NCBI GenBank assembly: GCA_037379345.1 | Contig: CM074511.1 | Span: 30,448,862-30,512,861 of the forward strand | DNA from: Perna viridis | Lineage: Eukaryota | DNA length: 64,000 nucleotides | Direction: 5' to 3' | Part shown: positions 6,986 through 57,390 of the stretch, piece by piece | Layout: each line of letters starts with the position of its first letter | Numbering within the stretch: position 1 is the first letter of the stretch | Position numbers and translations under genes: made by a program | The notes under the pieces: generated by a model | The model's database searches: none | The model's input: only the letters and a program-made list of their open reading frames with translations | Told to the model about the DNA's origin: nothing

Positions 6986-7227
6986 CACAGATGCCCCTCC
7001 AGTCTGAGACCCCTCATAAATACTCAATCGGACACCACAATCATTAATATCAATCATTTTCTGTGTAATTTGAATAGCATAGAATGAATCTGTATATCCG
7101 GAATGAATAACTATAGTACATCTGTAGTCTGGATTAACAGGAGTAACATCAGCTCTGGCCTGTATTGTGTAGGTGTGGTCAAATATTGAGATAGTCCTTC
7201 CACAGCTGACTGGACCATCCATGTACA
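6986..7227 (-). CDS. Gene A coding exon 2: first half of CUB-like ectodomain
   Basis: cag acceptor and GTAAG donor, 242 nt, phase 1 to 0; YMDGPVSCG...YRCTIVI...DINDCGVRLSIYEG; paralogous exon of the same length at 32995-33236. Confidence 0.88.
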
Positions 7228-11335: not shown

Positions 11336-11530
11336 TTTATTGCTTTGACCTAAAAATAACCCAGGTAAAATCAAAGTAAATGATCAAACGCTTATGCTCA
11401 CCTGGTTCACTGGTTCCGGTGTGGTAAACAGGAGCTAACGGTAGTATTAGTGATAGTTACCTGTACAGGTAACAATTTATGTTATCGTTTACTTTCTACT
11501 AAAATTTGTCATTATACTGCTACATATATT
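11320..11530. promoter_or_regulatory. Putative bidirectional promoter, copy 1
   Basis: Left part aligns with 38830-38885 (gene B start) and right part with 43345-43520 (gene C start); YY1-like AATATGGCG; palindrome GTTACCTGTACAGGTAAC at 11456-11473. Confidence 0.6.
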
Positions 11531-13355: not shown

Positions 13356-14050
13356 TAATCTTTTGTATGCATGTAAATACGTGTTACTGTATGATTATAA
13401 GCCAGACGTAAATGAAAAAACAGGATATATTTAGCAGACGAACACCCTGTAATCTTTTGTCATTCCCGACCGCGTTGATATAAGACTATCGATTACAGAG
13501 CTACCGTGGTCTAGTGGTTGCGTGTCTAGTTTTTATGCAGTTGAATGTTAAAATCTAGTTTTTATTATTTTTTTTTCAGTTAGTCTTATTTTAATTGTTT
13601 AATATTTAACATATGCCTATACAAATATACGTGTTACTGTTTGATTATAAACCAGACTTAAATTGTCCTTGTGTTGATTTAATATATTAACCATACACAC
13701 CTTTTTCTGCGTTTCCAACAAATGCTACACGTGTAGCAGCTGAAACACTGCGATTTATTTACAATTCTGAATATGATTTTTTAACACATAACTGGCTGTC
13801 AAAAGCATTGTTACATTTTTGCCACATGTAAATATATGCAGATAAGGTCATCGTGGTCGAGTGGTTTTGTCGGCGTTAACATGAACATATTATTTAAAGT
13901 TCAAATCTCGTTGTGTTATTTGTTATTATTATTTTCTCTTTCTTTCTTTCTTTTTTGTTACTACCATAATTATTCGGTTTTTACTCGAATAAGAATATCG
14001 TTTCTTATATGTCTTAGTTTACGGTTGTAAAGGTATTCTTATTTTGATAG

Positions 14051-17000
14051 GATGCCTGGTTCTGATCCTCGTCAAAGATTTGACAAAATTACTGAGAAAA
14101 TATTTTCTACTAGACAAACCAGAGGGAGTAATTTGTAATATATGTAGGCATAAGTGCTATAAGATCAAAGACCACACAGCTAAAAAAATAGTCCAAGTAA
14201 CACCGAATCTGTCACACCAGAAAACAAGGTTGGATAAAATGATGTCAAATGCTGTTTCAAGTCCACCATCAGTCAGTTTACCAATACAAAGCACAGCAAA
14301 ATCTCATGCTTACTGTATTATATGCAGGAAACCAGGTCCAAAAGTGATAGTTGTTTCTGCTGATGTCAGATTTAAAGTGTTCATGATATACAATATTTTG
14401 ATTCCTAAAGGTTCTCGGTGTTGCCCTTGCCATGTCACGAATGACATCATTGAAGATGTAAAGAATGTCCAGTCTTTATTTGATCAGTCTTGTGTCAACA
14501 AAACCACAATAATGGAACTGATACAACAACTGAGAGAAGAGGCAAATGCTAAAGGTGAAAAGCGTTTAGACTTTGATTCACCCTATGGATTGTCCAATGA
14601 AGAGTATAAGACATTGACTGGTTTACCCAAAGAAGAATTTGATGATCTGATGACCTACGTTGCAGATATCAACAATTCTAGTTCTAGAAGTACACGAACT
14701 TGTGTTGCAGTATTGTTAACCAAACTGAAATCTGGGATGGACAACAATTTATTGGGTGCAATGTTCAATATGACAAAAGAACAGGTAAATGCAAATTATT
14801 TTATTTCATTTTTATGCATGTTCCGATTACCTAAAATATTCTATTATAAATTTTTAATTCTTTCAGGCAACACATACATGTATGAGGTGTATTTAAGCCA
14901 CTTCTGATCATACCCAGCTCAGTTTGAAAATTGATGTTTTCTGTCTCTGTCCGTTTATCAGTTCATCATTCGTCCGTCTGTGACAAAGGATTTCGTCAAA
15001 TTTTCCAAAGAACTGTTTCTCATCCCACTGTTGTAATTGGGTATGTGTTGCGCTTACAGATTTCAATTTTCTGTCATGCAATATGTCTTTATCAACCAAC
15101 TTGTACGTATTAGAACGGGTGGTACTTCTGTATGCTTAAGCAAGTTGTAGCTTAGTGACACATATTTGCGAATCTTACTATAACTGATAAAGTTTATGTA
15201 CAAGTTCATATCTTCAGTCTATGTAATGATATTTTACTTTCTAAGTCATGATTTTGTTCATCTTTTGCAGATACTGAGGGCTATTTCCTCTGCTCGACGT
15301 TCTTTGAACACCAGCTTTGTACCGAAATATCTCGGTTTCAATCATATGACACGGGAAACTGTTATTAACAACCACACACGGCCATTAGCAAAGGAGTTAC
15401 TTACACCAGGAACTTCGCTTGATGACGAAGCAATACTTGTTCTTGACGGGGCGTATGTATATGTGCAGAAAAGCGCAGATTTTGAATTTCAAAGAAGATC
15501 ATACAGCATGCACAAGCATCGCCCTTTGGTGAAGCCTTAATGATCGTGACTACAACGGGTTATATAATAGCCGTTTTAGGGCCATATCTAGCTGACGGAA
15601 AATACTCAGATGCAAATATTCTTAAACATATTATTTCAACAAATGTGCAAGAAATGAAATCCTGGTTGCATGAAGGCGACGTGTTTGTGGTCGACCGCGG
15701 GTTTAGAGACTCGGAGGAGATACTTGAACAAATTGGGATCAAAATGGAAATGCCATCATTTCTACAAAAGGGACAAAAACAGCACTCGGTAGAAGATGCT
15801 AACAATTCAAGATTAGTAACTAATGTAATTATTCAAAAAAATATTTAACCCAGTCCATTAGTGTTATCTCTACATTGTATTAAAAATCAAGAAGTAGTTT
15901 CTATATGCTTTGTTTGAAGTTTTGTTGGCGCATTAATTGTTGTAGGAGACAACTATACTGATTTGATTTTGACAGGGTAGCTTGGAACAATTTCAAAATA
16001 AGTATTTTGAACTCGAACTTTTTTTTATATAAATATTTTTATCATGATGATGATCCGAACATTATGCTTTTGTATATTTTGAAATATAAACATTGGATCG
16101 ATGTATGCTAAAAAATATTTTATCGATTAATAAGGTGAAAATAAAAATTAATCCGAATAAATCTACCGAAAGTCGTCGTACCCTTATTTTCTCTACCGGT
16201 TTTTGTTTAAAATAGTGAATGATATTACTGTATACAATGTATACTATATTATGTCTACAAGGCAAAATCACATCACTTAAAAAAGGTTTCATGTACATGT
16301 ACAATAATTACTTTCAGTATGAAGACATCTCTTTCTCAAACTACTTGCGATTTTTCTACTGGGTTGTAAACATGCATCTGCCAATACACGTCCTTTCGTA
16401 AACTAGGTAAATCCTTAAAAAGCAATTCTTAGAGCAGTGAATTCCATGGCCTTCAATCATTATAGCTCTTTTTGGTTGTATATCAGATGGGTGGTTGAAT
16501 CCGTCAATGGAAGGATAAAAACCTGGCGATATTTAGACAAAACACTACCCAATACACAGCTACCGTATATTGGAGAATATGCCAAAATAATTAGTGCCAT
16601 CTGCAACAAGTACAGGTAATTAGCTGTGCTTCATTTGTTGTCATGTTTTTTGTTTATTTGTTTTTGTTTTTGTTTTTGTTTTTTTTGTCTGTCTTAGAGC
16701 AATTTTCTATACCAAAGCTGATCTTTATATGATCTATTAACAGTGCTAATAATTATGAAAGCGTATATTGACAGTCTTTGTAGGAATAAATTACATACCC
16801 ATAGATTTACGATTGCCTTATATAATTGTAAAGTATATCTTACTAAAACGGGAAGTTTTACATAAATCGGAAATGGATAGGATAAAGACATTTTCGCAGC
16901 TTTTCTCACTTGCTATATTTGAACAAGATCCTCGATTACATGTATACAATCTACATGAATAAGGTGACGAACATCGTGTTTTTTTTTCAATTTTAGACCA

Positions 17001-17582
17001 GCGCTCAGCGTAGGAAGCGATGAAGATATTTTGCTGGCAACAAAAATGCTTCACCTTTCATCTCAAAGAAATACATTGAAAGACCAAGTTATTGAGTTAG
17101 CTAAAAAGCCGTCACAGTGGAAATCAATAGATAATACAGAGGAACTTAATGATTTTCCAGTATATACAGAAGACGAAATAAGAGCTTTAACATTAAGCGT
17201 GTATCAAGTAAAGTTGGCAAAAAGTTACACCCGAGAACATTTAAAAGAAGATGGAACTTATGAAATAAAAGTATGTAAACAACAACAGGATTTGTTGTCA
17301 GCGAAAATCCAGAGTAGGCATGTTACAAGCAAACAGTATCTTTGCTGGATAAAATACGCCGAGGGTACAGTTTTGGCCTGGTATTGTCAATGCAAAATGG
17401 GAGCAAGAGTCGTAGGATCTTGCGCTCATATTACAAGCGTCATATGGTACCTTGCTTATGCCAGACATTCTGGTCTCAGACTTGATGGTAGTAAAAAGTC
17501 GTTAGAATATATTGACGATGCTTCAAAAATTCCAGATGCTGTGGATGCCAATGACAGTGAGGGCGAATTCACGGAAGAATAA
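14051..17582 (+). pseudogene. Spliced DDE_Tnp_4-like transposase with N-terminal Cys motifs, HTH and C-terminal SWIM zinc finger (exons about 14051-14784, 15271-15824, 16482-16615, 16997-17582)
   Basis: Catalytic motifs [33 protein letters not shown]; SWIM CQCKMGARVVGSCAH; 1-nt frameshift at ~15538; probable dead acceptor at 16480-16481. Confidence 0.85.
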
Positions 17583-19450: not shown

Positions 19451-21564
19451 CTGTTATCAACCCAAAGGCAAGGTAATGCACGAATACAAAACATTGCATA
19501 TGATTATGAACATAGCACATAAATAAATTGCTACAAAACCCAACACCTACACATTTATAAACCGAAAGAAGTGACCGTAATGAAAGTTTTCTAATACAAG
19601 TTCTAATTCTGTATATAAACTGTGCAAGAAAATAAATATATCTTGTTATAATTGAATAATATCAATTACATACATAAGTTTTTCATGAAATAAAAGAGGA
19701 ATTCAGCAGAGTAAGTATAATAATATATATAATAATAATGCAATTCCAGAAATGAAAGGCAATTAAACTGCATATAAATTCACATTAGCCAGGGAAATAA
19801 AAATATGATTTCTGTTAATGCCTGCCCTTCATATTTAATGCTTTTCAGTGAAATTTAACTCATTTCACAGTAAAGATACAGAAAATATTTTTTTTCTTAA
19901 AAAAGGATGGAACCATTCGTAAAATCAACCTGCCAAAGATTTGTTGTTGTTTTTAACCATGTTTCATTGACTGACCAATTTTCACAGAGAAATACTTGTT
20001 ATAGCAAACAACAAAAAAAGTTGTTGGGAAACATATCCTTTAACACCAGAATGAATGATGATTAATTTGAAAAATTGATTAAAATGAAAGTCGTTGGTAT
20101 TGCCAGAGTGGATAAACTGGAGCCACCTGATGTGTCTGGTAGAAAGGTTTTTGTGTTATGATCATCACCTACAAAAGATATTCCATTAATATTTAAATAA
20201 TTTGACTTGTAACAAGATTTCTGGTTGGCTTGTTCTCTTTGAGCAAACCAAGATATTTTGTATAATTTGGCTTGGAACTATGACGCCATCAAGGTCAATT
20301 AGTCCACACTCGTCGATCTAACGACATAACATTTTGAATACGTATCATTATTATTTATAATTGGAATGTCATCCATTAGAAATGAAATCATAAGGAATTC
20401 TACATTTTTAACAGTTTATACTCAACAACTAGGTCTGGGTAAATTTACACTTGTTATGAATTATTTTGAATAACCTGTTCAAAAATTAGAAACATTAATC
20501 CTGATGAAGATTGAATTCGCCACTTATCTCGTTTCACAGTGAATGCACAAGTATTTCATTTTATGTGGTCATACGTCCCCCCCCCCCACCCAAAAAAAAA
20601 AAAAAAAAACAAAACAAAAAAAAAAACAAAACAAAAAAAAAAAAAAAACAGCAACAAAAAACAAAAACAAATACGAAAAAACTTAGTTATTTAAATGAAA
20701 AATAAGAAATATTTCTGCTTTCTTCTCAACACTTACTAATATTTTGTGGTACAAGTCTCGTTTTAGAACGTCAAGATAAGAACTAAGTAGATTAAATAAG
20801 GAATGTAACTTTCAAAAGATAAATACAACCTCAGTATCTTGATACTTGCTAATCACTATTGGGTGGTAGTGTGTTTACAAAATAAAATTTGTATTAAATG
20901 CTTAGAAATTATTCAATAACTCTCTCGCTTGAGTTGATATACGCATATGTCAGGAATCGAAAAAATTCTAATGTATGAAAACTACATTTTTTTGAATGAC
21001 GATATGCGATTTTATGATAAAAGTAAGACACCATTGATTTTAAGTAATTATTTGAATTACCATCGCTACGAACAGAGAAATGAGCGAGTTTCTATGATCT
21101 GAAATTTTATCCATTTTCAAACGCAAAACTATATGAAAATGAAATTCTATATTAAACTAATGTATTAATTGTAGTTAACATATTTTTCATTTTGTTTTAC
21201 GAGTTTTAAAACCTAATGGTACAAAATGTATTTCGTTAAGGGGTTGTTTTTTCCAGCTTTACTGCCTCCAGACATTTATAAATGTTATAATGTTTATACT
21301 CATTTGAAAGCAGAAACTCTAGGAAATAGTTTGCGATAGACTAATTGGAATTTTATCGATGAGATGTAATAGATGATGAATCCAAAACATCCAAAACTCA
21401 CTGAGTGGTATATTTTAAGGCTAACTTTTCATACATTGCAGTAATTGCCAGTTGGTGACCAGGTCCATTCTCGTTCTATAGATAATAAAAAAGTAAAAGA
21501 ATTCCACAAAGGGGGAGTTGTGGTCATCTGGGGTGTATTTGACCCATGGACTATAGTAACTTAC

Positions 21565-22443
21565 CTGGGACAACAACTGCTCTGGGCTCAATCTGATAAT
21601 TGGCATCATTAATGGACCCCCTAGAAAGATAGAGTGTGGCTGATCCTCCTGATGTCATGTATTTCCTGGTTTGGTCTATTGGTGATTCCTTAGAGATAGT
21701 AAACTGAAAAAAAGGAGAAAAAGATAAGTATTTACATATGTATTATGTATGTCGAATAGATTTTGCCATCTTCTGGATGAGTTACATACTAGCAATTGAA
21801 GGCTTTTGCCTGTCTGTCACAGATTGATTGATTGATTGTGCTTTTACGTCCTAGCTATAGCAGGTGAAATCTATGACAAATAACCCATATAAACATTTGT
21901 AATTTTTTTTTATAAAAATAAAAATAAGAAAACAAATGGAAATACGGTAGTTTCCAATCTCATAAAAAATCCAACCCAATTTTCATTTTTAGACTAAAAG
22001 TTTTTTTTTTTTTTTTTGTATTCTTTGTTACCCTGTTGAATTTGTTCAGCCCGTTGTGTTGTACTAGTAATTTGTCAAACATGCTCATTGACAATGCATG
22101 AAATCAGGGAATGACGTTAGAAGTTGTCCTAAGGAAAAGTTCAATTATACTTTCCGTAAAGGTAACCAAAGCTCCTTTATTTTTCTTTGCCTTACAATTC
22201 TATTTCCCGTGTTATCTGGACCGTCATACATATGGAATTAAATGCCAACATCATATACTGAAGCACGAACTATTTCCACCTGAAACCGTCTCATCTCCCC
22301 AAAACCGAGTATTGGTAAGAGTAATCATACATTCTCTTGTTGTTCCTGGGTTTGTTTGAAATGCATCTCCCCCAAGAATTGTTGCTGAGTTTTCCCCACT
22401 TCAAATTTCTTTGCTGAACATTGTGAAGCACTATCCATATAAA
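21565..22443 (-). pseudogene. C': inverted pseudogenised copy of gene C ectodomain exons (22443-22196 and 21703-21565)
   Basis: Reverse complement of 53527-53774 and 54296-54434; same exon lengths (248, 139) and splice sites; first exon has a -1 and a +1 indel and a CAT>TAA change; no signal or TM exon found. Confidence 0.9.
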
Positions 22444-23859
22444 CTAAAATTTTTGTCTGGAGTTAGTATAGAATAAAAATGTATTCTCACGTCATTTTAT
22501 TGTACATACTTTTGTTATTTGTTATTTGTAACATCATTTTTTTACATTTGTGAAAAGTGTGGAAAAAATCAACAAAGCAAAGGAACCCAGCTTATTTACT
22601 TGTAGTGACGATGATGGCTTTAATATATAACTAATTTTATCCTGAGTTGACATTTGTTATATTCCTTATTTTCTTTTTCTTGTTGAAATTTGAAAACATC
22701 GCTGCACGTGTTAACTTGCACATTTTGAATTTCTATTTTCCTTTTTTTTCAGTTCACATAACGAGAATAATAATGGTGATATCTCAAAGAGACAAAAAAA
22801 ACCCACCAGCATAAAAATGTCAGCCCAAGGCTAACCATTAGTCTTCAATGAACGGCGAGGAAATCCTCTTATCACAGGGAAGGTTGCAGCTGGCCCCAAA
22901 ACATCATTATATAAAATGTACAACGAAAGAGTTGCCCTCATATACTAAGTGTAACATAAAAATAACTACACAAGACATAAAGAGGCCAGAAATTTCTGAC
23001 AAGGGACTGGCGCAAAAAAAAATGAGGCAGGGATAATGTACTTTGGCGTGATCATAACCCTCCCCCTCTAAAATCTGGCTACTGTGGAAAAAATATTACA
23101 CACTGAAACACACTTTAATTTCAGTACAAAAAGGTCTGTGTCCCTTGTTACAACAGAAATAAAGAAATTACAAAAATGTGCAAACTATGAGGACTACTAT
23201 CAGTTAACGGACATGCCAGCCCCAGACCATTTCAAATCTGTAAAAAGTTATGTGCATTAATGAATATGCATTTAAACTAATTTTGATGTATAGTAAGAGA
23301 TTTATAGATAATAATAATAATTGTTACAATTGTTAGATTGTTAGATTGTTAGATTTGTAGTGAAAAAAATAATATTGACATGTATAGTATTGAAAAAAAA
23401 CAGCAGTTTAATCATGCGTGTTATGAAAGTATTTGGTAAAACTAAAAATATAACGAATATGGCCTTATCCGAGGGATATATAATCATGCGTCAAAGCTAC
23501 TCAAGTGTTGAATTCTCAATAAAAATATAGGACAGCTTTACAATTTATGCCCAAGAATATTGCGGTGAAGATATAGATTGTGTAAAGCATCCAATGTGGA
23601 TCAACACTGAATGAATAAATAACTTAGGTTTCTTACCTAATTTATGGAATTATGATTTGTATCTGAAGTGTTACATGTAAGGACTTCATTATGCAAATAC
23701 TCATTTACATCATTCTTCATTAAGTACTGATGTGTCCGATATTCGTTGCATTTTGTTGCACTTTGCAACAGTTAAGCTACAGAAGGAATATGAGATAGGT
23801 GACAGTAAAGCTTAAAAAGCTAGGTATCTACCAAAACCGTGTGCCTCATTGACTACAGC

Positions 23860-23980
23860 TCTGATGATATTACTTGACTGAAGTGGCCATTCTTTCCTAA
23901 TACGACGGGAGACTGGAACAAACTGTCACCGGTCATCGCCAAGGCCAAGTCACTTGAGATGTCCAAAGCTCAAGTGACGA
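23860..23980 (+). mobile_element. Short 3' remnant of a CR1/L2-type LINE ORF2
   Basis: Translates as FFPNTTGDWNKL, matching the FFPxTxxxWNxL C-terminal motif. Confidence 0.45.
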
Positions 23981-24879
23981 AAATGAAAAAAAAATTACAC
24001 TTTGGACAGTATTATTTGTAATGTTTTTTTAACAGTGCTCGATATCCGCGGGTAGCAAGTTGAATGTGGGCAGTATACAAAAGAAGAAGAAATATCACGC
24101 ATATTGAGGTTGATTTGGCGACATTTTCATTATATCGAAGCTTGGCCAGTTTTAAAACTAACATTAAACTGTAAAGAAGGAAGTAGAGTGATATAACTAA
24201 AAGGGTATACATTACAGCATATTTAATTGCTGAGTGAAAAGGGTATGCTAATTTATACTATATACCACAACATTACAAACACTTTGAAAATTAAATATTT
24301 TTCTCACAATTTTGTACTTCCGAAATAACAAGTAACACGGTCGCAACTGCGGATGGGTTTGGTGCTGCTGCGCTTAGCAGGAAGCTAAATGCTTATGTGA
24401 AGGGTTACTGACATTCACCCATATCGCGTTGTTATTTTAAAGACTATAAAAAATAAAAGACTATAAATATAATTTTAATTTCTACTTTCATTGCTGTTCA
24501 TCAAAAACTCTAACAGCGGTTGGTTTTGAAAAGGTTACGATTTAAAAATGAGCATGAAACACAAGGAGCCAATACTTCATAATATATGGGTAACATATAC
24601 AAATACCTCAAATTTGACTCGTATTTTATGTTTCTTTGCCACCAGACACGTGCGTAGATCATGTATAATTTACTACATGGATTTTTATTATTTCTATTAT
24701 TTTTACATAAGGAAACAAGGAAGTCTACTATCAAAAATAATTAAATTTCTTCCTTTGATCTAACCCATCCCCCTATTGTATATTTACAAAATGCACACGA
24801 GACTGAATCATAGGATCATTGTCTCGGTAGTTTTCTCTTAAATTCCACATATAAAAGCTTACACACGCACATAATTTAT

Positions 24880-25630
24880 GTATGAGTTACCACGACACTT
24901 GTTACTCCCGTATTGGTATTAGTTCAATGCGTATCCTGAAAGATTCAAAAGACCTTCTGGAAACCTCCAATTCAAGATTATTATCAGCATACAATACCAT
25001 TAAAACCTATGATTTTTTCAACTCTATATACTTCTATTCCCCACCCAAAAACTCAAAAACAGTAAAATCGTTGTTACTTCAAAAAGACGGTTTACCTAGA
25101 AACAGATATATAGTACTTGGTAGAGATTCTTCATACTTTGTAAAAACCGATTCCAAAGCATTTTCCAAACATACTGAAGAATATGTTTTTAAAAATGCTG
25201 AAATATTTGATCAACAACATATTTATCCAGTGTGATGGATGTGTTTTTAACCAACGCCCGGCATTACAATGGGAACAGATTTAGATCCTCGTCTCACTAA
25301 CCTATCCCTACAATCTAATGTAATGAAGCTGACTGTATAGCTGATACAAAATCCATCTGCACCATCGGAACCGGCTTGTTTAATTGTCAGTTTTCCTTTC
25401 CTCTTTCGTACCATGGAATTGACTTTTTATCGGCGGGTGTTTCTAGAAAAGCAGAGGACACTTTACCTACCGGTGCACCTGGTCCATGCTAACCGTTTTA
25501 AGTGGAGTCGGAGTTGCTCATTTACTTTTGTTGTTTTGTACGTATTATTTTGGTTATTTTATGTTGTTTGTTCTGTGTACCTGTTTTCTACGTCTGGTCT
25601 TTGTCCCTGGATTACATTCTGTTGATTTCC
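24880..25630 (+). mobile_element. Degenerate Penelope-like retroelement fragment (RT remnant plus 3' repeat)
   Basis: ILKDSKDLLE...IKTYDF; decayed GIxMGT motif; followed by the same terminal sequence as 30838-31417. Confidence 0.75.
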
Positions 25631-25689
25631 GGGAGAATCATAGCAGATTGGAAGATTCAGATTGCATTTTTTCACAATTAAAATGGTAT

Positions 25690-26210
25690 TTCTGACATGT
25701 TAAAAACGGATAAAAAATCTCAACATAATTCTATGCAGGATACCTCTAGAAACATTCATATCAAGTTTGGCTCCAATTGGTCAAGTAGTGTCAAAGGAGA
25801 CGATTTTGGAAAGAAATGACATTAAATTAAATACCAAAAACAAACGTCGAAAAACTCCAACATGGCTTAACAGATTAAAACGAAAGGTTCACCACAAATA
25901 GATCTTTTCATGCTGAACACTTTTATCATGGCTAAATCTAACTGTTTTTTTATATTAATGCGAAAAACAACTGCTGTCCCACCTCTATGATTAGTTTTAT
26001 TGTTAGTTACCATGGCCATGCTTTTCGGCGGATAAAAAATCACCACATCAGTTATATACAGGATACCTAAATGAATATCCATACCAAGCTTATTTTAAAT
26101 GGGTCAAATAGCGTCAGGGAAGAATTTTGAAAAATTGTTAACGACGATGATGACGACGGACGCCAAGTGATGGCACTAGCTTACTTGGGCTTCGGCCATA
26201 TGAGCTAAAA
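25690..26210 (+). mobile_element. Helentron/HINE-like non-autonomous element
   Basis: Internal CCAAGTTT/GGCCATG-type repeat units, (GAC)n microsatellite, terminal hairpin AGCTTAC...TGAGCT followed by AAAA; related copies at 27530-28510 and 62990-63350. Confidence 0.55.
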
Positions 26211-27529
26211 ATCAAGGATCTCATTTTCTCGAAATAAAAAAGGCTGCATCAAAACTATACCTGACACATGTATTCATACAGTTGCATTGATTATCATAAG
26301 ATATGATGAATCATCCCCTCTGGTTTTTAGGCAGAACCATAACTTAAATAACTGAAGGTTTAAGATGAGTTTCCGAGATATCTAGATAGACTAATATTTT
26401 GGGGGGCCCACTTTCAATAAATATGGTGATAGGACATGCCATGAATAGGTGGGGAGAAACAAACATAATTATATGATAAGTCAACAAGATTTACATTACA
26501 AATTATACAAATAGTAAAAAAATCATCTGTGTCCTATCATCTGTTGTACGGGTTAACATCAAACAAACAGTTTTCTATAATGACTAAGAAGACAGGGGCA
26601 ACTCTTCTTCCTCCTTTAACACAATACTCATGACACTTAATTTACTTTGAAGAAACTTGCACTTGTAGGCATTTAAAAATAAACAATGATTTTTCCCTCT
26701 CTCTATAAATTATTACAAAGAGTAATCAAGGGAACCAAGGTTATAGCGGTAATCTGGGGACAAATACCAGACATGGAAAACAGACATTCACAAAAATCAA
26801 GGATCTCATTTTCTCGAAATAAAAAAGGCTGCATCAAAACTATAATCCTAGCCCTCCCATAGATATAGAATGACCGCTCCCTTACTCTGGTCCTATTCAA
26901 TTAACAAAACCGTCTATAAGATACCTCGAAAAAACTCAGAAAATCGATCCGTTACAATGTACATTTGTTCACTTTAATTCTTGCAATCAAACCAAGAAAT
27001 TTAAAAAATTCTCCAATAACTCAAATTATTCCGACGCAGTCGGTATAGTTTCGTTTTTTACCCTTTGACCTTATAGACGCTATTCCATGATCGCAATTAT
27101 GTTTCCCAATTGGCCAAATACTGATAACTTCGTTGCGTTCGAAAAAAAAACTATCGGAACTAAAATTGTGTGTGTCATGTGTTATTTCCTGTATGAAATG
27201 TAGAAAATTATAAGTAAAAAGGACAAATTTTACTGCACCGATTATCTTTATTTTTAAAGATAGTTCTTGTTTTGTCTAGTGCAGTACGATTGTTCCCTGT
27301 AATGTGAGCGTGAAATAAAGATGAACTACTAAAGGATATTTTTTCAAAACGTTTGAGTGTTAGTATATGGTTCAAACGACTTATCTTCTTAATATAAACC
27401 AACTTTTCATTAATGTATATAATATCATCCAATTTATTACATGGAGATACAACATGTGATAACTGATAAACTAAAAATGTGAAGAAAATAAAATGTAATG
27501 AAAGTCATGGGCCTTGCTAACTAGAAGTC

Positions 27530-28937: not shown

Positions 28938-28954
28938 TCATCCAACTAGTCCTC
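28938..28954 (-). CDS. Candidate terminal exon of gene B (RGLVG*), giving a 150-aa secreted protein
   Basis: Strong acceptor ttttttgttcatttcag, phase-1 join, TGA, then AATAAA 8 nt downstream; very short, so uncertain. Confidence 0.45.
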
Positions 28955-30267
28955 CTGAAATGAACAAAAAACTCTGTTGATACAAATAATGTAAGATGTG
29001 GAATAAAAAAAACCAGCCTAATATTCATACACAGGTACACAGTTCGGAATATCTGCATAATTTTTCAAGGGTGGTTTATGGTGAAACTCTTTGATGAACT
29101 TTTCGATCAATGTCAGCTTCGTTATTTAATGCACTCAGTAGGATTAAGTCAGTGTATAACGAAGCTCCTATATCTCGATTGACAATTAAGTCCATTGTAA
29201 AGTTAAAATGACCCTGTAGTCAGACAGTATAATGGTCTGAGCAATCATCCCATTAATATTTTTAATCAAGTTATCATTATTTTTCAATATAAGAAAATAT
29301 CTAATCAGTTACCATTATTTCATTTAATGTCATACTCTCAATAAAGTATTTGAATTTTCTCTGCTGATAGCTTCAGTATTGCGAAATATTATTTCGGTAT
29401 GCATTTTTCTTCGTTTTATAAACATGTATAACTTGTATTTTTGCATTTAAGTGCAAGTTTTTCTAAGAAACAGGCAAAATGGGAAAAATCAGAAACATGC
29501 ATGTCAAAACCCCACCTATCTGACAATGAAATTTCATTCAATGAAGCTTACTCTATTTGAAAAGACCATTATTTGATCACTGTGCTTACTCAGAAAGTTT
29601 TCAAAATAATGTTAAAAAGAAAAGGTTTTTGACAGAGTTATCTGCCCTTGAAATGTTCACTTTCATTTTCAGTGTATTTCAATGAAGTTGTAAATCAGTT
29701 CACCAATATGATATGGAAGATCTTGTCTTTTTCCTTGATGATTCTGATGTTGTAAATAGCCAAATTAAATTTTCAAAATGGTGTTTTTTTTTCATTCCAT
29801 GTTTCACCAAGTGCCTAATTCTTACAGATACTGACACTTAATACAACAGTTACGTTGTCACTTATTCATTTCTTCTTAAACAAATTTAACCAACAGCACC
29901 CTTTTCCAGTGTTTTGTTATGTGATAAATCATCAAAAGTTAACGTGACTAGCCGTCCTAAGAGTAGCCTTTTAGAACAATAATTTTGTAATTGTGATATT
30001 TGGTCCCATTTGAACGTAATATATTTATTATGATGATTATTGAATATAAAACAAATTGCAAGATGCCAATCTTAAAGTTATGACCTACTTTAAAGTACGT
30101 GCGTAAAACGGTGTCTTGTAACCAATTAATTTTGAAAGTCTTTTTTTAATAGTCTTTATTGGAATTTCTCCCATTCTTAGCCAGTGATTCAAAATGCATG
30201 TAACTTAACCACAAGGCGGTGATTAATTTTCTTTTACATTTCCGAGTTTTCTACAGATGTCACGACG

Positions 30268-30393
30268 AAACAGATTCTCCTCCAATGGTCTCGGGGATTA
30301 CAATATTACTCCATTTTCGATAGTTAAATTTTAGATTTAACTATCTCGAGTGGAGAAATATTGTAATTCCCTCGAGACTGAAAGAGAATCTAT
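30268..30393. repeat. ~125-bp imperfect fold-back element
   Basis: Centre GATAGTTAAAT-tttag-ATTTAACTATC; outer arms ATTACAATATT/AATATTGTAAT and AGATTCTC/GAGAATCT. Confidence 0.75.
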
Positions 30394-30660
30394 TTATCTG
30401 ATTGCTTTCACGAGTGGGAGAAATTGAAATGTAAATACATGTACAATTTACCTTTAAACAATGTCAATGCTTTTGTACATATCTATTCTTGTATGAGGAA
30501 GACGTAATATATAATTCACTGAAATTGCGGTTCATAATAAGCACTAATTTGTCAATATAACAATCAAAGAAAAGACAGTTTTGAATTTTAATTGGTTTAA
30601 TCAGATGTATACAAACTGGACTTGTAAGCGTTATTAACTCAGTTTTGTAAAAATACTTAC

Positions 30661-30793
30661 GATAAGCTTTAACCTCGATGTCAAAATCATTTCTTTGAAT
30701 ATAAATTAATTTTGGGAAGATAAGCTCAAGCGTTATAGTACCACCTTTAGAATACAGTACTCCAGTAAATTTTGTGGTGCAGGAAAACTGTTT
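30661..30793 (-). CDS. Gene B coding exon 3 (KQFSCTTKFTGVLYSKGGTITLELIFPKLIYIQRNDFDIEVKAY)
   Basis: 133 nt, open, tag and GTAAGT sites, paralog of 6093-6225. Confidence 0.8.
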
Positions 30794-30837
30794 CTAGAAA
30801 AAGTAAAACCAGCAAAAATGCATGAAATACTTGTAAA

Positions 30838-31417
30838 GTAATCAAGGGAACCAAGGTTATAGCGGTAATCAAAAGAATGTAATCCAGGGACAAAGACCAG
30901 ACAAGGAAAACAGACATACACAACAAAGAACATGAAGTAACTAAAATCATACATAACAAGTAACAAAAGCAAATGAGCAACTCGGACTCCACTGAAAACT
31001 GGGAGCATGGACCAGGTGCACCGGTAGGGTAAGCGTCCTCCGCTTTTCTAGAAACACCCGCCGAGTTGCTCATAAAAAGTCAAGTCCGGGGTAGACAAAC
31101 GAGGAAAGGAAAACTATGACCCGTTGAATAAATCACTTTTCATGGTGCTGATGGATACACCATAATGATCCACGAGTTCATGATGACGACCACAAAACTT
31201 CTGTAGTGATGACTTCAATCTTGTAGCAACATAACCCTATTCCAGAAACCTATTTGTTAGAGTTCGAGCGCGATACAAAAAGTCTGCGTAGTTTCGGCAA
31301 GCTCTGGCATAACGATTGAGTTGTGATATGAACACTCAATACGCAGGTGCAGGAGTGGTCTTTGTCCCTGGATTACATTCTTTTGATTACCGCTATAACC
31401 TTGGTTCCCTTGATTAC
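30838..31417 (-). mobile_element. 5'-truncated Penelope-like element with inverted copy of its terminus
   Basis: RT C-terminus (ISQLNRYARAC...LKSSLQKFCGRHHEL) plus 3' repeat; 31353-31417 is the reverse complement of 30838-30900. Confidence 0.8.
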
Positions 31418-31764
31418 GCCTTAATAAAGGAATATAATTAATATCTGTATAAAGAACGTTTGTTCGTTTTATAAATAAAGACGACAGCATTATTTGTAAA
31501 TATGGTTATATTAAATTATTTGAAAATATCTTTAAGCCTTTACATTTGTATGAGTGATCACGCACAAGTGGCATATCAATCAATGAGGCATCTCCTAAGT
31601 AAAACCATCCTCAGCTAGTAAACTAATTCTTGTCCTAAAATTTGGATGACTTGGGATATACCTATACATAAAATATGCAGACTTAAGACAAGGACAATTC
31701 TTAGGCTATTCTTTGACAAGTCCTTAGATGTTTTCGTTAATGGGCCGTGCATTCCATGATATAT

Positions 31765-32420
31765 ATATATATTCAAACGTTTCAGAATGTGACGACTCTA
31801 TTCGTTACACTGCTCCATCAGATAAAATTGATACAGGGAAGATACGTAAACGTATCGAAAGGTCTGAAAAATTCCCAACGATGTTGGAACTGTCAAATTT
31901 GTGATGCAAATTTTAGTCGTTCCCTCCACGGGACTCGAACTCGTACCACTGTGACTTCTATGGCAACACCGCCTGCACTAAGTCCAGCGCTCTAGACCAC
32001 TCGGCCAGCTAGGCTATATAAAAATATAGCTTTCGCTGGCCAAGTCATTCCTCCTCGTAGGATTTATCTAGGGCTGTAACTTAGTACACGATGTATGGCA
32101 GTACGAGACAGTTCATTTAGATGTTATTATGTAGGATAGAGGATCAAATTAATGATGCATGTCACAACAAATCAATATTATACAAACTTCTCAGAATGTG
32201 ACGACTCTATTCGCTACACTGCTCCATCGGATCAAATTGATGCAGGGAAGATACGTAAACGTATAGAAAGGTCTGAAAAATTCCCAACGATGTTAGAACT
32301 GTCAAATTTGCAATGCAAATTTTTAGTCGTTTCCTCAGCGGGACTCGAACTCGTACCGCTGTGACATCGTTCTAACATCTTTGGGAATTTTTTTCAGACC
32401 TTTCTATATGTTTACGTATA
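31765..32420 (-). repeat. tRNA-derived, (TA)n-associated repeat with a ~420-bp unit; other pieces at ~12280-12380 and 35890-36110
   Basis: A box TGGCCGAGTGG and B box GTTCGAGTCC on minus strand; unit recurs at ~32185. Confidence 0.7.
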
Positions 32421-32994
32421 TTCTATGCCAACAGCAGCATTAACACCAAATTTGATAAATATGTACATTCTATAGATATCGGAAAATTATATGTTTTAAA
32501 AATGTTAAAAAAGGTGTCATCGAAATTGTTGCTCAGGAATTCTTTTCTCTTTGAAACAGGTTTTAGTTGGTTTTTAATAGAAAAGGTGAAAAAAGACACA
32601 AGTATAAGACTTTCACTCATTTTATTTTAAACTCAAATCTAGAAATATGTTGTATTTTTTCAAACAATAATCTACGAAAGACACACAAACGACATTACAT
32701 TCCCTGTGAAAATCAAATTACTCAAACAAAAATTACCAAATCAAATGACATGAAGCACGTACTTGTACGTAAGAATTACAATTGGTATTGATCAGATACG
32801 AGAACTGACCGACCTAAAATAAAGTCCCTGTGTTTTTTTAATGCATTGGGCATATTGGAATTAAAGTTGGGTTTAGACATAACGATTTCATAAAAAAATA
32901 TTTACCTTAAACGCGGATTTCATAATATACAGAATGCATTATTTTAATCTACAATCCTTGCCCAAAAATCGTGTCAGCTAATAAAAAAACATAC

Positions 32995-33236
32995 CAAAGA
33001 AACTCCTCCTGTATGGGATCCCTCATAAATACTCAGTCGGACACCACAATCATTTATGTCAATTACTTTAGTTGTAATTTGAATAGAATATAATGATCCT
33101 TCATATCCAGAGTTAATGGTAATGTTACATCTATAATCTGGGATATAATCTGTGGCGTAAGATCGGCTGTATATTGTGTATGTTCTGTCGGATAATGAGA
33201 CAGACCTTCCACAATTGGCTGGATCATTCATGAACA
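32995..33236 (-). CDS. Gene B coding exon 2 (CUB-like)
   Basis: 242 nt, open, 51/81 aa identical to gene A exon 2 by hand alignment, no indels, Cys retained. Confidence 0.82.
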
Positions 33237-34904
33237 CTACAAAAGTAACGGTGTCTTTAGTATGTATAACTAGTACTTCATCATTTAATATATATTCATC
33301 ACCGTGAGATGTGCGTCACTTTCTAGCACAGACGGGCTATTTCAATATTTTGTATTGTAGCCCTTATGAAAATTTCATAATTCAACCAGTCGGAATCCAT
33401 TCATAACAGATGTGGGCTTTGGTTTGCGCCTCCGGTTGGTGGAGTTGAATTACAAAAACTTTTTAAATTTTTATTTTATGTAACATATACAGTTGACAGT
33501 AAACAAAAACACCTTGTTTAATTTTAAATAACATAGTGAAGTTTTTCCGATGGTTTCTGTTCGTTATGCAAATAAATCTACAAGTTCAAAATAAAGTCAT
33601 AAGTGTTTGAAGCTAAAGTCTTTTGGTTTTAAATCTGAGAAATGTTTTGTTTACGTATTTTAACACATTTGAAAAATATGAAGTTCAGTAACATTCTGTT
33701 TGATATATTGCCATCTTAGAACGACTTTATGTTAAAACGAACAAATAATATGAATAACAACACATTGTAAATGTACTGCTACAGGTCCAAAGGCACTGAT
33801 AATGCATAATTAAGGAAAATCGAAGATTGATTTAAGGAAAATTTGAAACGAATTACGAAGGCATTGGTAACGACTATTAATCGAACACAAAGAGTGGGTA
33901 GTGAATGGCGAATTCATTAAAATTATCTTAATAATATATGTAATATAAATAGTAACTCTATTAAAAAGACGTTATATGGTTAGACGCGTTCTTATTTGTA
34001 AAGTGTGAAAACAGGTATCCTTATAAATTATCATTTTTATTGGTTCAAAGTCAAGTTTTGAAACAAAATTTGTCATTTCCAAATAAGAGGTTTTGAAGTT
34101 ATAAAAGATTTTAAAATCAAAATCAACTGGGTAGCATGACATTGGTACTAAACTTTTAAGTTATTTTTTTTTAGAAATTTTCGCGCCATCACTAATTGAA
34201 GCTTAAGTTAAGATCTTTCCAAAATGTTTTAAAAAGGCTAGTGTAAGCCCACTTTCCAAAGGGAAAATGTCACTTCTCTAGATTATAACAGGCCAATCTT
34301 TGAATTACCTAAAATAGTAGAAGAACACCTATTAGAAATCAACTGCGTGAGTATTTATAAACTAAATGTAGTGGGCTTTAGTAAACCATGCTCTTTTGTT
34401 GCATTAACTGCAAAGGTGTAGGGGCATGAAGCTATGAATATTGCATAAAAATATCAACTATGTTGTTATAACATAAAATTTGTTCATAACACAAATATAT
34501 AGAAAAATAAAATTTTGTGGCAATAGTTCATTGTTATGAGGCCATAATGGTGCCATAAATTTGCATTATCAAGAAAAACTGCTGAGAATTGTAAATGTTG
34601 TTGTTGTTTGTGTGGACATATTTACATCCAAAAAACTATGTCCACACCCAAGAAACAACTTTATATTTTCACATATGATGAAGTTTGTAATAATAAATGT
34701 ATTCACTAAATATCTCAGGGGTGGACACCATTTCCGTGCCAAAAATATGACCAGAAAATGACAAAAAAAGTACAAACTTTGACAGTATATTTGAATATTG
34801 GTCAACTTTGAGCAAATTGTCAATGCAAGAATAATATAGTCAAAAATCTTTTTTGTTTTCTCAGTTGTGAAAGATTCTAGTCTACAAATTCAAAATTGAA
34901 TCAT

Positions 34905-35882
34905 TCAACACTTTGTCCAACTCTCCAAAGAAGAGATGGTGAAAAACCATAACTAAATCTGTGCTATCCTCTTTTGGTATCTCTACCAAAGACGATAATT
35001 ATGATATGCCGAATATGTACTGGATTCCTAAACTCTACAAGAATCAAACAACGCTAGTAGCTGGATCTAGCAAATGTACCACGAAACCTTTTTCACACTT
35101 TTAACTTCTATACTCACAGCTTTCTTTCAAAGAGGGTCTCCAGGCCTACCACTATACTTATTACTTTCGTAGGGGTATTAATTAAATGTGGATTATTAAA
35201 AATTTGAAGATCTTCTGGAAACCCTCATTTCAAGATTATTATCAAAATTCAATAGCATAAAATTTATTAAAAAAATGATTTTTCAACTCTTTATACTTAT
35301 ATTCCCCATACTCACTTAAAATCCCGACTCAAAAACATTATACATCGTTATTACTAAAAAAAAAAAGACGGTACACATGAATACAAATATGTAGATTTCT
35401 CATACTTTGTAAAAAAGCAAAACAAAAAATGCTGGAATTTTATATCGATTTGTTCAGTGTGGTGGACGCGTATTTCAACAATCGATCGGCATTCCAATGG
35501 AAACAAATTATGTTGCACTACATGCTGACCCATTCCTTCACTTTTATGCGGCTGAATAGCTGCTCTGGTCCAAGCTAGATCCTTTATTCTCCGTTTCCGC
35601 TATATATTATCGTTAAAAAATCCTAGTTATGGGGTTTTCATACACAGCATCTACCCCAAAAAAACTGGAGAAAAAGGCCACTACAGACACTGTGAAGTCA
35701 GCAGGATATCTAGACCTACACTTAGAAATCAAAGGGAAAGGTAAAGGAAAACTATTGACCAAACTATACGACAACCGCGATGACTTTTCATTCCGTATTG
35801 TAAACTTTCCTTTTCCCTTTCATATCACAACTACACAGACTTTTTGTATCATGCTAGAATTCTTACAATTAGGCTTTTGGAA

Positions 35883-35936
<54 letters not shown>

Positions 35937-36497
35937 AACGTCTCAGAATGTGACGACTCTATTCGCTACACTGCTCCATCGGATCAAATTGATATATAGC
36001 CTAGCTGGTCGAGTGGTCTAGGGCGCTGGACTTCCAAAAATTTGCATCGCAAATTTGACAGTTCTAACATCGTTGGGAATTTTTCAGACCTTTCTATATA
36101 TATATATATACACAAAAGTTTTATGGTCGTCATTATGAACTCGTGGTGAAAACTAATTTGTTCAAAGTATCATTGTTTCCTTTCCTCTTTCGTCTATTCC
36201 GGACTTGTTTTTTTATGAGCAACTCGGCGGGCGTTTCTACAAAAGCAAAGGACGGTTACCCTACCGGCGCACCATGTTCCTGTTTTTAGTGGGATCCGAA
36301 TTGCTCATTGACTTTTGGTACTTTGTATGTATGATTTTAGATATTTATGTTCTTTGTTGTATATGTCTGTTTTCCATGTCTGGTCTTTGTCCCTGGATTA
36401 TATTCTTTTGATTTCGGCTAGGATTTTAGTTCCCTTATTTACAATTAGGCTTTTGGAACAGGGTTATGTTGCGATAAAATAAGTCTATACTACAAAG
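34905..36497 (+). mobile_element. Degenerate Penelope-like RT element interrupted by (TA)n and tRNA-derived repeat
   Basis: MYWIPKL, DFSTLYT, GIPM, FRYI, YLDLHLEI...TKLYDNRDDFSFRIVNFPF motifs with many frameshifts; 3' repeat at ~36170-36440. Confidence 0.8.
35888..35930. repeat. (TA)n microsatellite
   Basis: Direct reading. Confidence 0.95.
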
Positions 36498-37614
36498 GTG
36501 TTATTGCGATATTTTAACTTACTTTTTCATTTTCCTATAGACATATTTTGAAGTGAAGTTTAAAAATATCCAAATCCTAGCAAAAAATATAAGTTGTTTT
36601 TTTTTATACTTAATGACATCACCAAATACTGCTTCTATATGTAGTTTTAAGGGATTTTGTATGAAAATGAGAAGTGAAGGGTAGTTTTTTTTATCCTAAA
36701 ATGTAGAGCACAAGCTTGGAACAACAAAATATTTTGCCAGAAGTTGTAATAATAAAGATATTTTTTGTGTGAATACTGCGTATTAATGAGTTCAACATGT
36801 GAGTCGTATGTTCCTATTTTTTAATAATTTGCCTAAATTCTCTAAATTCACTCAATTTTCGTCTTCAGGTTCAGTGGAACTCGTGCAAGAACATGAATAA
36901 AACTTTGTTTACAAAGCAGACGCATATTTAACAAGCGAATTCCCAAAGAGAGTTTTCGTTTGGGTCTTATTTTGATATATTTTTTAACATACTCCTTTAG
37001 AAGATTCAAGATAAATGAAAGTTTCTTAATTCCTGATACCGAGTCCTAACAGCAGGACTATGATATTAGAGGACTGTTCGTAATCCAAAAAAAAAAGCAA
37101 GAGTCAAATTTGCTAAAAATAACTACAAGGAGATCCTGACAAGCAATCGACATAGTGTTGGACTCTTGCTATTAGATAAGCCCTTTTATTTTTAAATATA
37201 TACATGTACCTAACTGAAAAAAATAGCAATATTAGTGAGAAAATTCCGTGTGATTATATATAGATTTTCAGTCTACGTGAAATGCGTGAAAGATCCTGAA
37301 ATTTTGTTCCTCTTCTAAAAAAATGACGAGGTAACTTTTTTACTTTCTTTAAATTGTGTTTTTTTCTCGAATTAAAGTACTATTTGTTTCTATACTTTCT
37401 TTTGAAAAAAATACAATGTAATTTAATTAAATTGAAACTCGCTTTTATATATGCATTCGCTTTAAAATCAATTCATTCCTTTCTACTTGTTGTCAATGCG
37501 TAAACAATACGCTGGTGTTTGTTCCTTATTCGATTTCATGTTCATTATTCATTTGTTAAAACGGACGAAATGCTCTTTATTCATTGCATATAGGAACATT
37601 TAATATGTACTTAC

Positions 37615-37675
37615 AGTAATCCATTCCATGAATTGTACTTATTACAAATGCAATAAAAAGAACTGACAATATCAT
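37615..37675 (-). CDS. Gene B coding exon 1: signal peptide MILSVLFIAFVISTIHGMDY
   Basis: gccaccATG Kozak context, 61 nt, phase 1, GTAAGT donor; same size and 5'UTR context as gene A exon 1. Confidence 0.82.
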
Positions 37676-53526: not shown

Positions 53527-53774
53527 TTTATATGGACAGTGCTTCACAATGTTCAGCAAAGAGATTTGAAGTGGATAGAAATTCAGCCACAATTCTTGGG
53601 AGGGAGGCAGTTCAAACCAACCCAGGAACAATAACAGAATGTATGATTACTCTTACCAGTAATCGGCCTGGGGAGATGAGACGGTTTCAGGTGGAAATAG
53701 TTCGTGGTTCAGTATCTGATGCTGGCGTTCATTTCCATATGTATGACGGTCCAGATAACACAGGGAATAGAATT
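53527..53774 (+). CDS. Gene C coding exon 2 (CUB-like, first half)
   Basis: 248 nt, phase 1 to 0, YMDSASQC...TECMITL...DAGVHFHMYDG; GTAAGG donor. Confidence 0.87.
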
Positions 53775-54295
53775 GTAAGGCAAAAAAATTTAATGAAATT
53801 TGGTTGTCCTCTGGGCAAGACTAATTGTACTTTCACTGTTGTCCAAATAGTAGTTTCACTTGTCCTGGGTAATAGTTAGGACAGCCTTTAATGTCATTCC
53901 CTGATTTCATGCATTTTCAATGAGCATGTTTGACAAATTACTAGTACAACACAAAGCTGAACAAATTCAACAGGGTAACAAAGAATATCAAAAATCACTT
54001 ATAATCTAGTAAAAAATGAAAATTGGATTTTTTTGAGATTGGAAACTACTGTATTTCTATTCATTTTCTTATTTTCACTTTTATAAAAAAAAAATGTACA
54101 AATGTTTGTACAGGTTATTTTGTTATTGATTTCACCTGCTATATCTAGGACATTAAAGTACAATCAATCAATCAATCTGTGACAGACAGGCAAAGGCCTT
54201 CAATTGCTAGTATGTAACTCATCCAGAAGATGGCAAAATCTATTCGACATACATAATACATATGTAAATACTTATCTATTTGTCCTTTTTTTCAG

Positions 54296-54434
54296 TTTAC
54301 TATCTCTAAAGGAACACCAGTAGACCAAACCAGGAAATACATGACATCAGGAGGATCAGTCACATTTTATCTTTCTAGGGGGTCCATTAATGATGCTAAT
54401 TATCAGATTGAGCTGCATGTAGTTGTTGTCCCAG
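54296..54434 (+). CDS. Gene C coding exon 3 (FTISKGTPVDQTRKYMTSGGSVTFYLSRGSINDANYQIELHVVVVP)
   Basis: 139 nt, phase 0 to 1, ttttcag and GTAAGT; not in the ORF track. Confidence 0.87.
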
Positions 54435-54842
54435 GTAAGTTACTAAACTGAGGGTGGACTTGATATCAATCAACTAGGTTAGCCTTAATGATTAAAAAAA
54501 ACTATGACCACAGCAGTTTTGGAGCTAAGCACCTAAATTCAACTTGGTTAAACTAATTTTGCAAATAAATGTGGTAAACCTGTTGATAAGTACCTGTGAG
54601 TTCATCTTTGGAATTATTGATGAATATGCTGTTTTAATACCATAATTATTGTGAAAATAATTACTGCTGAGTGGTAGAGAATTATACATGTACATATATA
54701 TAACATTTTGGGGGGTTCATTTTTTTTCTTGCAAATTTTAAGCTAGTATTGGCATAAAAATTTCAGACATACCATCATTACTCATAGCAGAAAATTATAA
54801 AGCAGTAAAGAAATCAGACACTTGGTAAAAGGAAATAATTTT

Positions 54843-55043
54843 TTACCCTACTGATGCACCTGGTCAGCATGCTCCCAGTTTTAAGTGGAGTCTTAATTAC
54901 TCATTTACTTTTGTTTCTTTGTGCATATTATTTTGGTTATTTTATGTTGTTTGTTGTGTGTTTCTGTTTTCCCTGTTCGGTCTTTGTCCCTGGATTGTGT
55001 TCTTTTGATTTCCGCTGTAATCTAGGTTCCCTTGATTACTCTT
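54843..55043 (+). mobile_element. Penelope-like 3' terminal repeat copy
   Basis: GCACCTGGTC...TTGGTTCCCTTGATTACTC family sequence. Confidence 0.8.
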
Positions 55044-55287
55044 TATAGATAAAAAAATTCAGAGGGTTGGGATTTTGTTAGTGTTTTTGACTGGCATGTA
55101 TATTTCTCAAATTTCAAATTAGCATTGCAATTACTTGTACATTGATTTGCATTAGTTTTTGAATGCACATGTAGAAAATGTACTATAAATGCTAGAATTC
55201 AAGTTGGTATGCATATTGAAATACTTTAATTTTTTCCTGATGCATTGCCTTTTATTGCATTTTTAATCATGGTGCGATTCCTTTTAG

Positions 55288-55662
55288 GTGACCCTACAAC
55301 CAATGATGAATGTAAAACTGGTAATGAGTATGGCTGTATCCACTATGGCTATCAGCAAGTTGTCGACAAAGAAACAGTTATTGGCATCGTAGGTGGCGTG
55401 TTTGGATTAATCCTTTTTATTGTGATCCCAATTATTGTCATATGTTGTTATCGTAAAAGCAAAGGTGTCAATAAGAAGTGGGATGAGTTTAGACTTGCTG
55501 ACAAAGTAAACACAGCTGCAGATATACATGCCTCAAGTGCAAGTTTAACCAAATCTAAGAAGGAAATGTGGACTTCACAAAGCTCTAAGGCTCCATACTC
55601 TGACATGAAGAGGTCACACAGAAGTAGATATAGTGATGGAAGTGCTAGTGAATTTAGTGCAA
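55288..55662 (+). CDS. Gene C coding exon 4 (GDP linker, Cys loop, TM helix, juxtamembrane)
   Basis: Phase 1 to 1; TM VIGIVGGVFGLILFIVIPIIVICCY then RKSK; starts GT GAC CCT like gene A exon 4. Confidence 0.88.
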
Positions 55663-55711
55663 GTAAGTCATTGAAATATAAATTGAGGGGGCAGCGGGTC
55701 CAAGGGTTGAA

Positions 55712-57140: not shown

Positions 57141-57390
57141 GCTATGGGAAGGTAAAGAATATGTAGACAAAAAAAAACATTGTTTGTTTTGTGGGTTTCT
57201 CTACACCATGAATCACTTTACCATTAGCAGTGTCTCTTAATTTTATGTGGACAGGTATTCAAATGTGTACTTATTTGAATTTGCAAGAAATTTCTTATAA
57301 TAATATTTCAGGATAAGAGGTATGATTTCATAATTAATTTAATTTATTGAGGCATTAAAATAAATGAAAATCTGTGGTTTTTTTTTTCAG

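Follow-up and report, generated by a model that had tools for sequence, protein, structure and literature searches.

Can a copy of a membrane receptor that has lost its anchor and its signalling tail still be a working gene, and if so, of what kind? The question is raised by gene B, whose first three coding exons lie at 37675-30661 on the minus strand of the 64,000-nucleotide (nt) stretch of Perna viridis DNA analysed here (the window; contig CM074511.1 of assembly GCA_037379345.1, positions 30,448,862 to 30,512,861), together with its parent, gene A, an ancient paralog, gene D, and a pseudogene, C. The initial annotation took B for an intact paralog of A without a transmembrane (TM) segment, perhaps a secreted decoy or ligand. 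Our analysis somewhat favours a reading in which B encodes a tail-less CUB-fold protein that would be either secreted or tethered by a glycosylphosphatidylinositol (GPI) anchor, depending on its last exon, and would bind a partner without signalling, with a specificity that has drifted from that of A.

Exon anatomy and alternative endings of B

B coding exon 1 (37675-37615, minus strand like all B exons below; 61 nt) encodes a predicted signal peptide, with hydropathy of up to 3.6 over 8 residues and a small residue before the likely cut; exon 2 (33236-32995, 242 nt) supplies the N-terminal two thirds of the CUB-fold domain and exon 3 (30793-30661, 133 nt, ending in phase 1) the remainder. Their counterparts in A, at 9387-9327, 7227-6986 and 6225-6093 on the same strand, have identical lengths, B has kept GT/AG ends and an open frame, and four cysteines, whose pairing is putative, stand at matching positions in the two proteins. 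Identity amounts to 51/81 amino acids (aa) in exon 2, 91/145 overall and 82/125 (66%) over the domain. On lengths, splice sites, cysteines, frame and exon 2 identity the comparison agrees with the initial annotation, as it does on diverged, repeat-filled introns: those of B are repeat-bearing and mostly unalignable to A's, an example being a 580-nt MITE-like (miniature inverted-repeat transposable element) insertion with 62-nt perfect inverted ends in intron 2 (30838-31417). A's intron 3 can be aligned to B's up to 75 nt from A's TM exon. About 50 nt of exon 2 (33000-33060 in B, 6990-7050 in A) are near-identical, synonymous sites included, due either to strong constraint or to a short conversion tract.

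A search of the genome with the exon 2 sequence returned matches at A and B only, and the TM and tail exons of the Mytilus orthologue of A matched only at A; a second TM or tail exon for B is absent from the genome. Nor did the genome search find a processed B copy elsewhere. The annotated lack of a TM segment is upheld, with no TM exon found between 22.5 and 30.6 kb of the window; an anchor-like hydrophobic exon does lie at 20.2 kb, outside that range.

Splicing of B is seen in transcript contigs. Eight of the 24 indexed runs were examined, seven of which consist of assembled contigs, either presumed RNA or of unrecorded kind. The joints in these contigs coincide exactly with the predicted GT-AG splice sites of B: exons 1 and 2 are joined in at least three of the eight runs (X5, X9 and X20), exons 2 and 3 in at least five (X1, X6, X8, X9 and X20), and exon 3 (30661) is joined to a downstream exon at 28954 in at least three (X1, X13 and X9), from three studies. 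These counts are lower bounds, read from 15 of 315 plus 15 of 18 joints and from 24 of 2557 plus 24 of 256 loose ends. Contigs cover exon 2 without differences, and for the B exons together none turns up either in the contigs listed or in the complete difference table of 21 rows. Intronic contigs, by contrast, show differences of about 0.5% (our own count from the tables); this hints weakly at constraint, the sites not being independent.

The exon at 28954 (exon 4a, 28954-28919, 36 nt, single-copy in the genome) encodes RGLVG and a stop, and carries an AATAAA followed by a GT donor. Its 150-aa product has a hydrophobic N-terminus and no further hydrophobic segment, and is likely a single-CUB protein of the secreted type. 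The initial annotation had proposed just this as the last exon of a secreted signal-plus-CUB protein. The exon is indeed used and the protein encoded, but in X1 the exon ends at 28919 and is spliced onward to a non-coding exon (24443-24308, minus strand, 3’ end uncertain), whose distal part shows homology to the sequence next to the promoter of D and ends at a matching GT. Since 4a splices on in X1, its AATAAA need not be a poly(A) signal. Nor is 4a the only ending, as exon 3 continues into exon G in X8 and into exon 2 of pseudogene C in X6, so that "secreted" fits just one of at least three isoforms.

At the same time, 4a is the ending seen most often, and together with its AATAAA this would suit a B that acts mainly as a secreted decoy, with the 150-aa form dominant and either competing for A's ligand or pairing with A or D, thereby damping the signal, with the joints to G and to C as splicing noise. 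Like soluble decoy receptors, B is a paralogous ectodomain without a signalling tail; short endings are the kind that assemblers clip; and promoter-like sequence that B has in common with A would make co-expression of the two possible. We nevertheless regard a decoy as rather improbable. The onward splicing of 4a leaves its stop 19 nt before the junction, and a stop in that position could expose the 4a transcript to nonsense-mediated decay, while the ending at G is difficult to treat as noise.

Exon G (coding part 20168-20062, minus strand, 35 codons, with the transcript running on to about 20025) is preceded by an AG acceptor, is single-copy in the genome over its coding part and gives a 180-aa form. 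In X8 a 449-nt contig consists of exon 2, exon 3 and 142 further letters, 30 of which are shown and match 20137-20166 exactly; this ending and the one in C were identified by comparing loose contig ends with the window by eye. GPI signals comprise a small-residue omega site, a spacer and an uncharged hydrophobic C-terminus. In the G tail a plausible omega site (157 or near) with small residues is followed by a short spacer and by a hydrophobic end free of charges (KD11 2.0), with no cytoplasmic tail, and among 238 phase-1 open reading frames behind 1273 acceptor-like sites on both strands of the window, G alone matches a GPI-signal rule. The 180-aa form is thus predicted from its sequence to be GPI-anchored, and a tail of this kind, unique in the window, is what a decoy with merely noisy alternative endings would leave hard to account for.

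Pseudogene C is a minus-strand copy of D exons 2-3 (22443-21565) without a signal exon. Its exon 2 (22443-22196), copied from D exon 2, has three lesions in the reference (a 1-nt deletion near 22392, a 1-nt insertion at 22304 and a TAA at 22240); its exon 3 (21703-21565) has an open frame and intact splice sites. In X6, B exon 3 runs on for 168 letters, and the 30 shown match C exon 2 at 30/30 positions as against 29/30 for D; this joint, found in one of the eight runs, leads to a product of 184 aa in the reference allele. Synonymous divergence (dS) between the C exon 2-3 block and D is 0.14 and intron divergence 0.12, compared with a dS of 0.67 for A and B, and inverted D-like patches at 24331-24199 and 23799-23567, which extend C upstream, are only 64-69% alike. 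The block being far closer than A is to B and than its own flanks, later gene conversion between the inverted copies seems likely. As aligned, the block spans 21554-22511 and 53451-54445 at 84%, with ends that hug exons 2-3.

One could take these traces for parts of a single gene, with B, C and G together encoding a GPI-anchored tandem protein of one A-type and one D-type CUB, and the second domain broken in the reference allele. In X6 the joint between exon 3 and C exon 2 is in phase; all four splice sites of C are preserved, it has no signal exon of its own, and its block is much closer to D than the flanks are, as after gene conversion. But exon 2 of C bears three lesions, the ratio of nonsynonymous to synonymous divergence (dN/dS) between C and D is 0.65 (0.33-1.41), indistinguishable from 1, and no joint linking C exons 2 and 3 to G is among the joints listed, only the reference allele being visible; we consider a tandem gene very unlikely.

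Some contigs in X5, X6, X8 and X20 read through from exon 2 into intron 2 (32994-32619, minus strand), with a 107-aa truncated product and a possible poly(A) signal at 32626. The long read-through contig of X5 was considered as a major isoform, but similar contigs have depths of 4.7-7.3 in X6, X8 and X20, and the read-through may be a minor form exposed by assembly. Low-depth unspliced contigs cover 23100-26500, in B's long intron 3, in X1, X6, X9 and X20, perhaps due either to slow splicing or to long 3’ ends, and the unique parts of intron 1 are without cover in the second contig set.

Selection on the B protein

Over the domain, the pairwise dN/dS of A and B is 0.36 (0.21-0.59), and 0.24 for exon 3, a well-kept C-terminal half that would suit a decoy. 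The low pairwise ratio comes mostly from A. With Mytilus as the outgroup, 20 aa changes are B-derived and 4 A-derived, with 19 unpolarised (p=0.0015), and two more distant outgroups agree on the bias towards B; branch dN/dS is 0.59 (0.33-1.02; P(≥1)=0.03) for B and 0.12 (0.03-0.27) for A. In the tree, A and B form a clade with support of 100/97, with end branches of 0.017 for A and 0.50 for B. The B protein is constrained but relaxed or diverging, so the claim that it is under selection stands for the pairwise ratio but is softened by the B branch, at about 0.6 with an interval touching 1.

An interval that reaches 1, several unrelated endings along with the intron 2 read-through, and a neighbouring copy, C, that is already broken would all fit a transcribed duplicate in slow decay, once constrained, which lost its anchor by rearrangement and now splices to any downstream acceptor. 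Yet frame, exon lengths, splice sites and four cysteines have survived a dS of 0.67: among 5000 neutral simulations with 0.3 changes per site, an open frame with its ATG was left in 1.9%, and when splice sites and cysteines were added the count fell to 0/5000. The variant-free exons in contigs from several studies, set against the varying introns, point weakly in the same direction (again with sites that are not independent), and slow decay appears unlikely to us.

The rate of change bears on the role of B as well. A passage of PMC2832619 states that the binding domains of decoy and receptor must stay similar. The B ectodomain has drifted to 66% identity and evolved about five times faster than that of A, which weakens the decoy role offered in the initial annotation and favours a changed specificity over a faithful decoy. 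A new function for B, as was also proposed there, is plausible from these comparisons.

Fold, family and relatives without an anchor

The Pfam CUB profile (PF00431) scores 14.8 on B exon 2 (E 0.037), below the gathering score of 21.4, and of ten family proteins that exon alone has a CUB match at E<=0.5. In the Atlas, CUB clusters are indicated at 0.93. The CUB fold is a beta-sandwich of about 110 residues. A model of the Mytilus coruscus homologue P0004, used as a stand-in for B, has pLDDT mostly >90 over the domain and resembles CUB structures (Foldseek E 1.5e-7; Z 14.6, root-mean-square deviation 2.1, 112 aligned), with spermadhesins ranked first (1spp_B, Z 14.6; 1sfp, Z 14.5), then neuropilins (Z 13.3). 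Four conserved cysteines are given for the CUB domain in a passage of PMC9083331. A, B and D are a divergent CUB-fold family, and sequence searches for its kin were largely empty: a word-based search of longer proteins with B exon 2 left 0/173 candidates, the seven matches of a PDB sequence search at E<=1 were weak, led by CD166 (E 3.4e-4), and carried no CUB annotation, and a domain-centred family profile had no PDB match at E<=5.

The initial annotation had likened B to spermadhesins, which a passage of PMC10850435 describes as seminal plasma proteins of pig and cow. PSP-I/PSP-II and aSFP resemble B in having a signal peptide and a single CUB, and they are the top structural matches, aligned from the first strand. 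On the other hand, identity in the structural alignments is 12-19%, the family profile finds no sequence match to them, and B derives from a bivalve membrane receptor, as its grouping with A indicates in a tree that contains no spermadhesins. The parallel survives as far as the CUB fold of the homologue, and judging from that model the link appears to be a shared fold only.

With a profile built from three sequences, 61 proteins were retrieved at E<=0.001; those with names belong to bivalves and gastropods, and their annotations go no further than uncharacterised, hypothetical, CUB-domain or C1q-domain protein. Examples are XP_071161226 of Mytilus edulis, XP_033746044 of Pecten, XP_046369555 of Haliotis and the D-type ESP01139 of Lottia. 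No paper on this mollusc family was among the literature matches listed, though members could appear in proteomic supplements. A and D belong fully to this family of single-CUB type I membrane proteins; B, whose exons 1-3 group with A and which lies with it in a mytilid clade (support 100/99), differs in having neither TM segment nor cytoplasmic tail.

Other members have lost the anchor too. Pecten LOC117341938 (168 aa) is a TM-less copy of the A-type ectodomain, and the Mytilus models LOC143047563, LOC127724044 and CAC5405797 are TM-less proteins of CUB plus C1q (C1q by Pfam). Gene models from three Mytilus species (P0005, P0090 and P0091) fuse the A-type CUB cassette to C1q. Known here as gene models only, the Pecten and Mytilus relatives are, like B, lineage-specific copies of the A-type ectodomain, mostly on longer branches than their parents, but they differ from B in being of independent origin and, in Mytilus, in the fusion to C1q. 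A single clade of B with the Pecten and Mytilus TM-less copies was rejected (p-AU 4e-79) on a 16-row tree that left out D-type rows, P0091, P0092 and all gastropods except Haliotis; since these copies are not one clade with B, loss of the membrane anchor recurs. None of the Pecten and Mytilus TM-less relatives passes the GPI rule. The D-type P0043 (217 aa), which is tail-less and ends in a short hydrophobic stretch (KD11 2.6), fails it also. A bolder and less likely reading is that the CUB cassette (exons 1-3) of an uncharacterised pan-mollusc receptor is a module that bivalves have freed from the membrane at least three times independently (as CUB alone in scallop, as CUB plus C1q in Mytilus, and as B), and that B switches between secreted, GPI-linked and A-D-hybrid forms by alternative last exons, in part taken over from a nested paralog, while selection favours a new specificity of recognition.

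Several points weigh against a B that is secreted or GPI-tethered according to its last exon. Seven of the eight runs are contigs with no record as RNA, and their joints are without a DNA run as control; in X21, the sole run on record as RNA (raw reads, of which 19% were read), B has hardly any cover, with a depth of 0.24 in the exon 2 bin. For the joints of exon 3 to G and to C exon 2 the evidence is in each case a single run with 30 letters displayed; with one depth value for each contig, the contigs give no isoform ranking; and the clipping of short ends during assembly may bring minor forms to light. The GPI rule is not a trained predictor but one of our own making, put together from general features of such signals after the tail had been seen, and an earlier, stricter version missed even G. 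The branch dN/dS of B splits dS equally, leaves 19/43 differences unpolarised and has an interval extending to 1.02, and the CUB fold is read from the model of P0004, not from B's own. Finally, an in-frame alignment pairs G with the first part of the TM exon of A (offset -12, 41/95 nt; 0/2000 shuffles), but this homology is non-significant, ranking 68/1500 and 44/3173 among window stretches, with a profile E of 5.6.

Descent of G from that exon by a stop codon is accordingly suggestive only. Whether G is a stop-truncated remnant of A's TM exon or was recruited some other way is close to an even call, tilted slightly towards the latter. An origin of G from D exon 4 was unsupported (p 0.08, rank 342/1500), and a target-site duplication linking 30061 to sequence upstream of G was dropped, the stretch being the end of a dispersed repeat.

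The locus around B and its meaning

Gene A (9387-1583, minus strand), with exons 5170-3185 and 1902-1583 after the three already given, encodes a signal peptide, the CUB-fold domain, a TM segment and a long tail (913 aa; Mytilus orthologue P0075), and among named proteins its nearest relatives come from Mytilus (68% over the tail). Gene D (52192-58499, plus strand, 657 aa) shares this architecture and falls into a second ancient subfamily. B and D stand head to head around a promoter-like region (43347-43651), and the inverted D-like patch at 24331 starts where this homology ends; within the region, 43347-43521, which is 66% alike to 11353-11513 upstream of A, is by homology a putative shared promoter of B and D. 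Two degenerate long interspersed nuclear elements with a reverse transcriptase domain (Pfam RVT_1) lie nearby, one between the putative promoter and the first coding exon of D (45100-50600, plus strand) and the other upstream of the first coding exon of B (40900-42800, minus strand), where a 30-nt tandem repeat occurs near 42080-42250. A 715-nt tandem repeat (99.6%) in D intron 4 (55712-57140) has a 99.7% copy downstream of D (58989-59801) and is either a recent duplication or an assembly artefact. Between A and exon G, at 13993-17582 on the plus strand, lies a fragmented DNA transposon whose match to DDE_Tnp_4 is weak and below the cut-off (E 5e-4).

If B is the tail-less binding protein that we favour, it would have arisen by tandem duplication of A with its promoter, and C, which now lies between B exon 3 and exon G, would be an inverted copy of the 5’ half of D. 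Exon 3 is joined to three different downstream exons, which would give a 150-aa secreted form, a 180-aa GPI-anchored form and a short C hybrid. Once translated, and secreted or attached to GPI, these forms would bind a surface or soluble partner and pass no signal into the cell.

This route from receptor duplicate to secreted or GPI-linked paralog is a known one, found here in an uncharacterised mollusc family. According to passages of PMC5856374 and PMC2832619, paralogs of CEACAM1 have repeatedly kept the ectodomain and turned into GPI-linked proteins, through a stop codon within the TM exon, or into secreted ones, through skipping of that exon. The primate GPI-linked CEACAM5-8, the secreted PSGs and horse CEACAM41 are like B in being receptor duplicates that lost the signalling tail. 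They differ in having immunoglobulin domains and belonging to mammals, whereas B is a CUB protein of a mollusc, and in that the single gene B seems to yield both forms through alternative last exons, in addition to splicing into a nested pseudogene.

The CEACAM precedent limits the surprise of the finding. B is nonetheless a small soluble handle on a receptor family of bivalves and gastropods for which the searches made gave no described function, and could serve as a natural reagent for ligand pull-downs. Its locus is a compact case of duplication and rearrangement supplying new last exons, and this ectodomain's repeated release from the membrane, in one case with fusion to the immune domain C1q, points to a binding role for the family.

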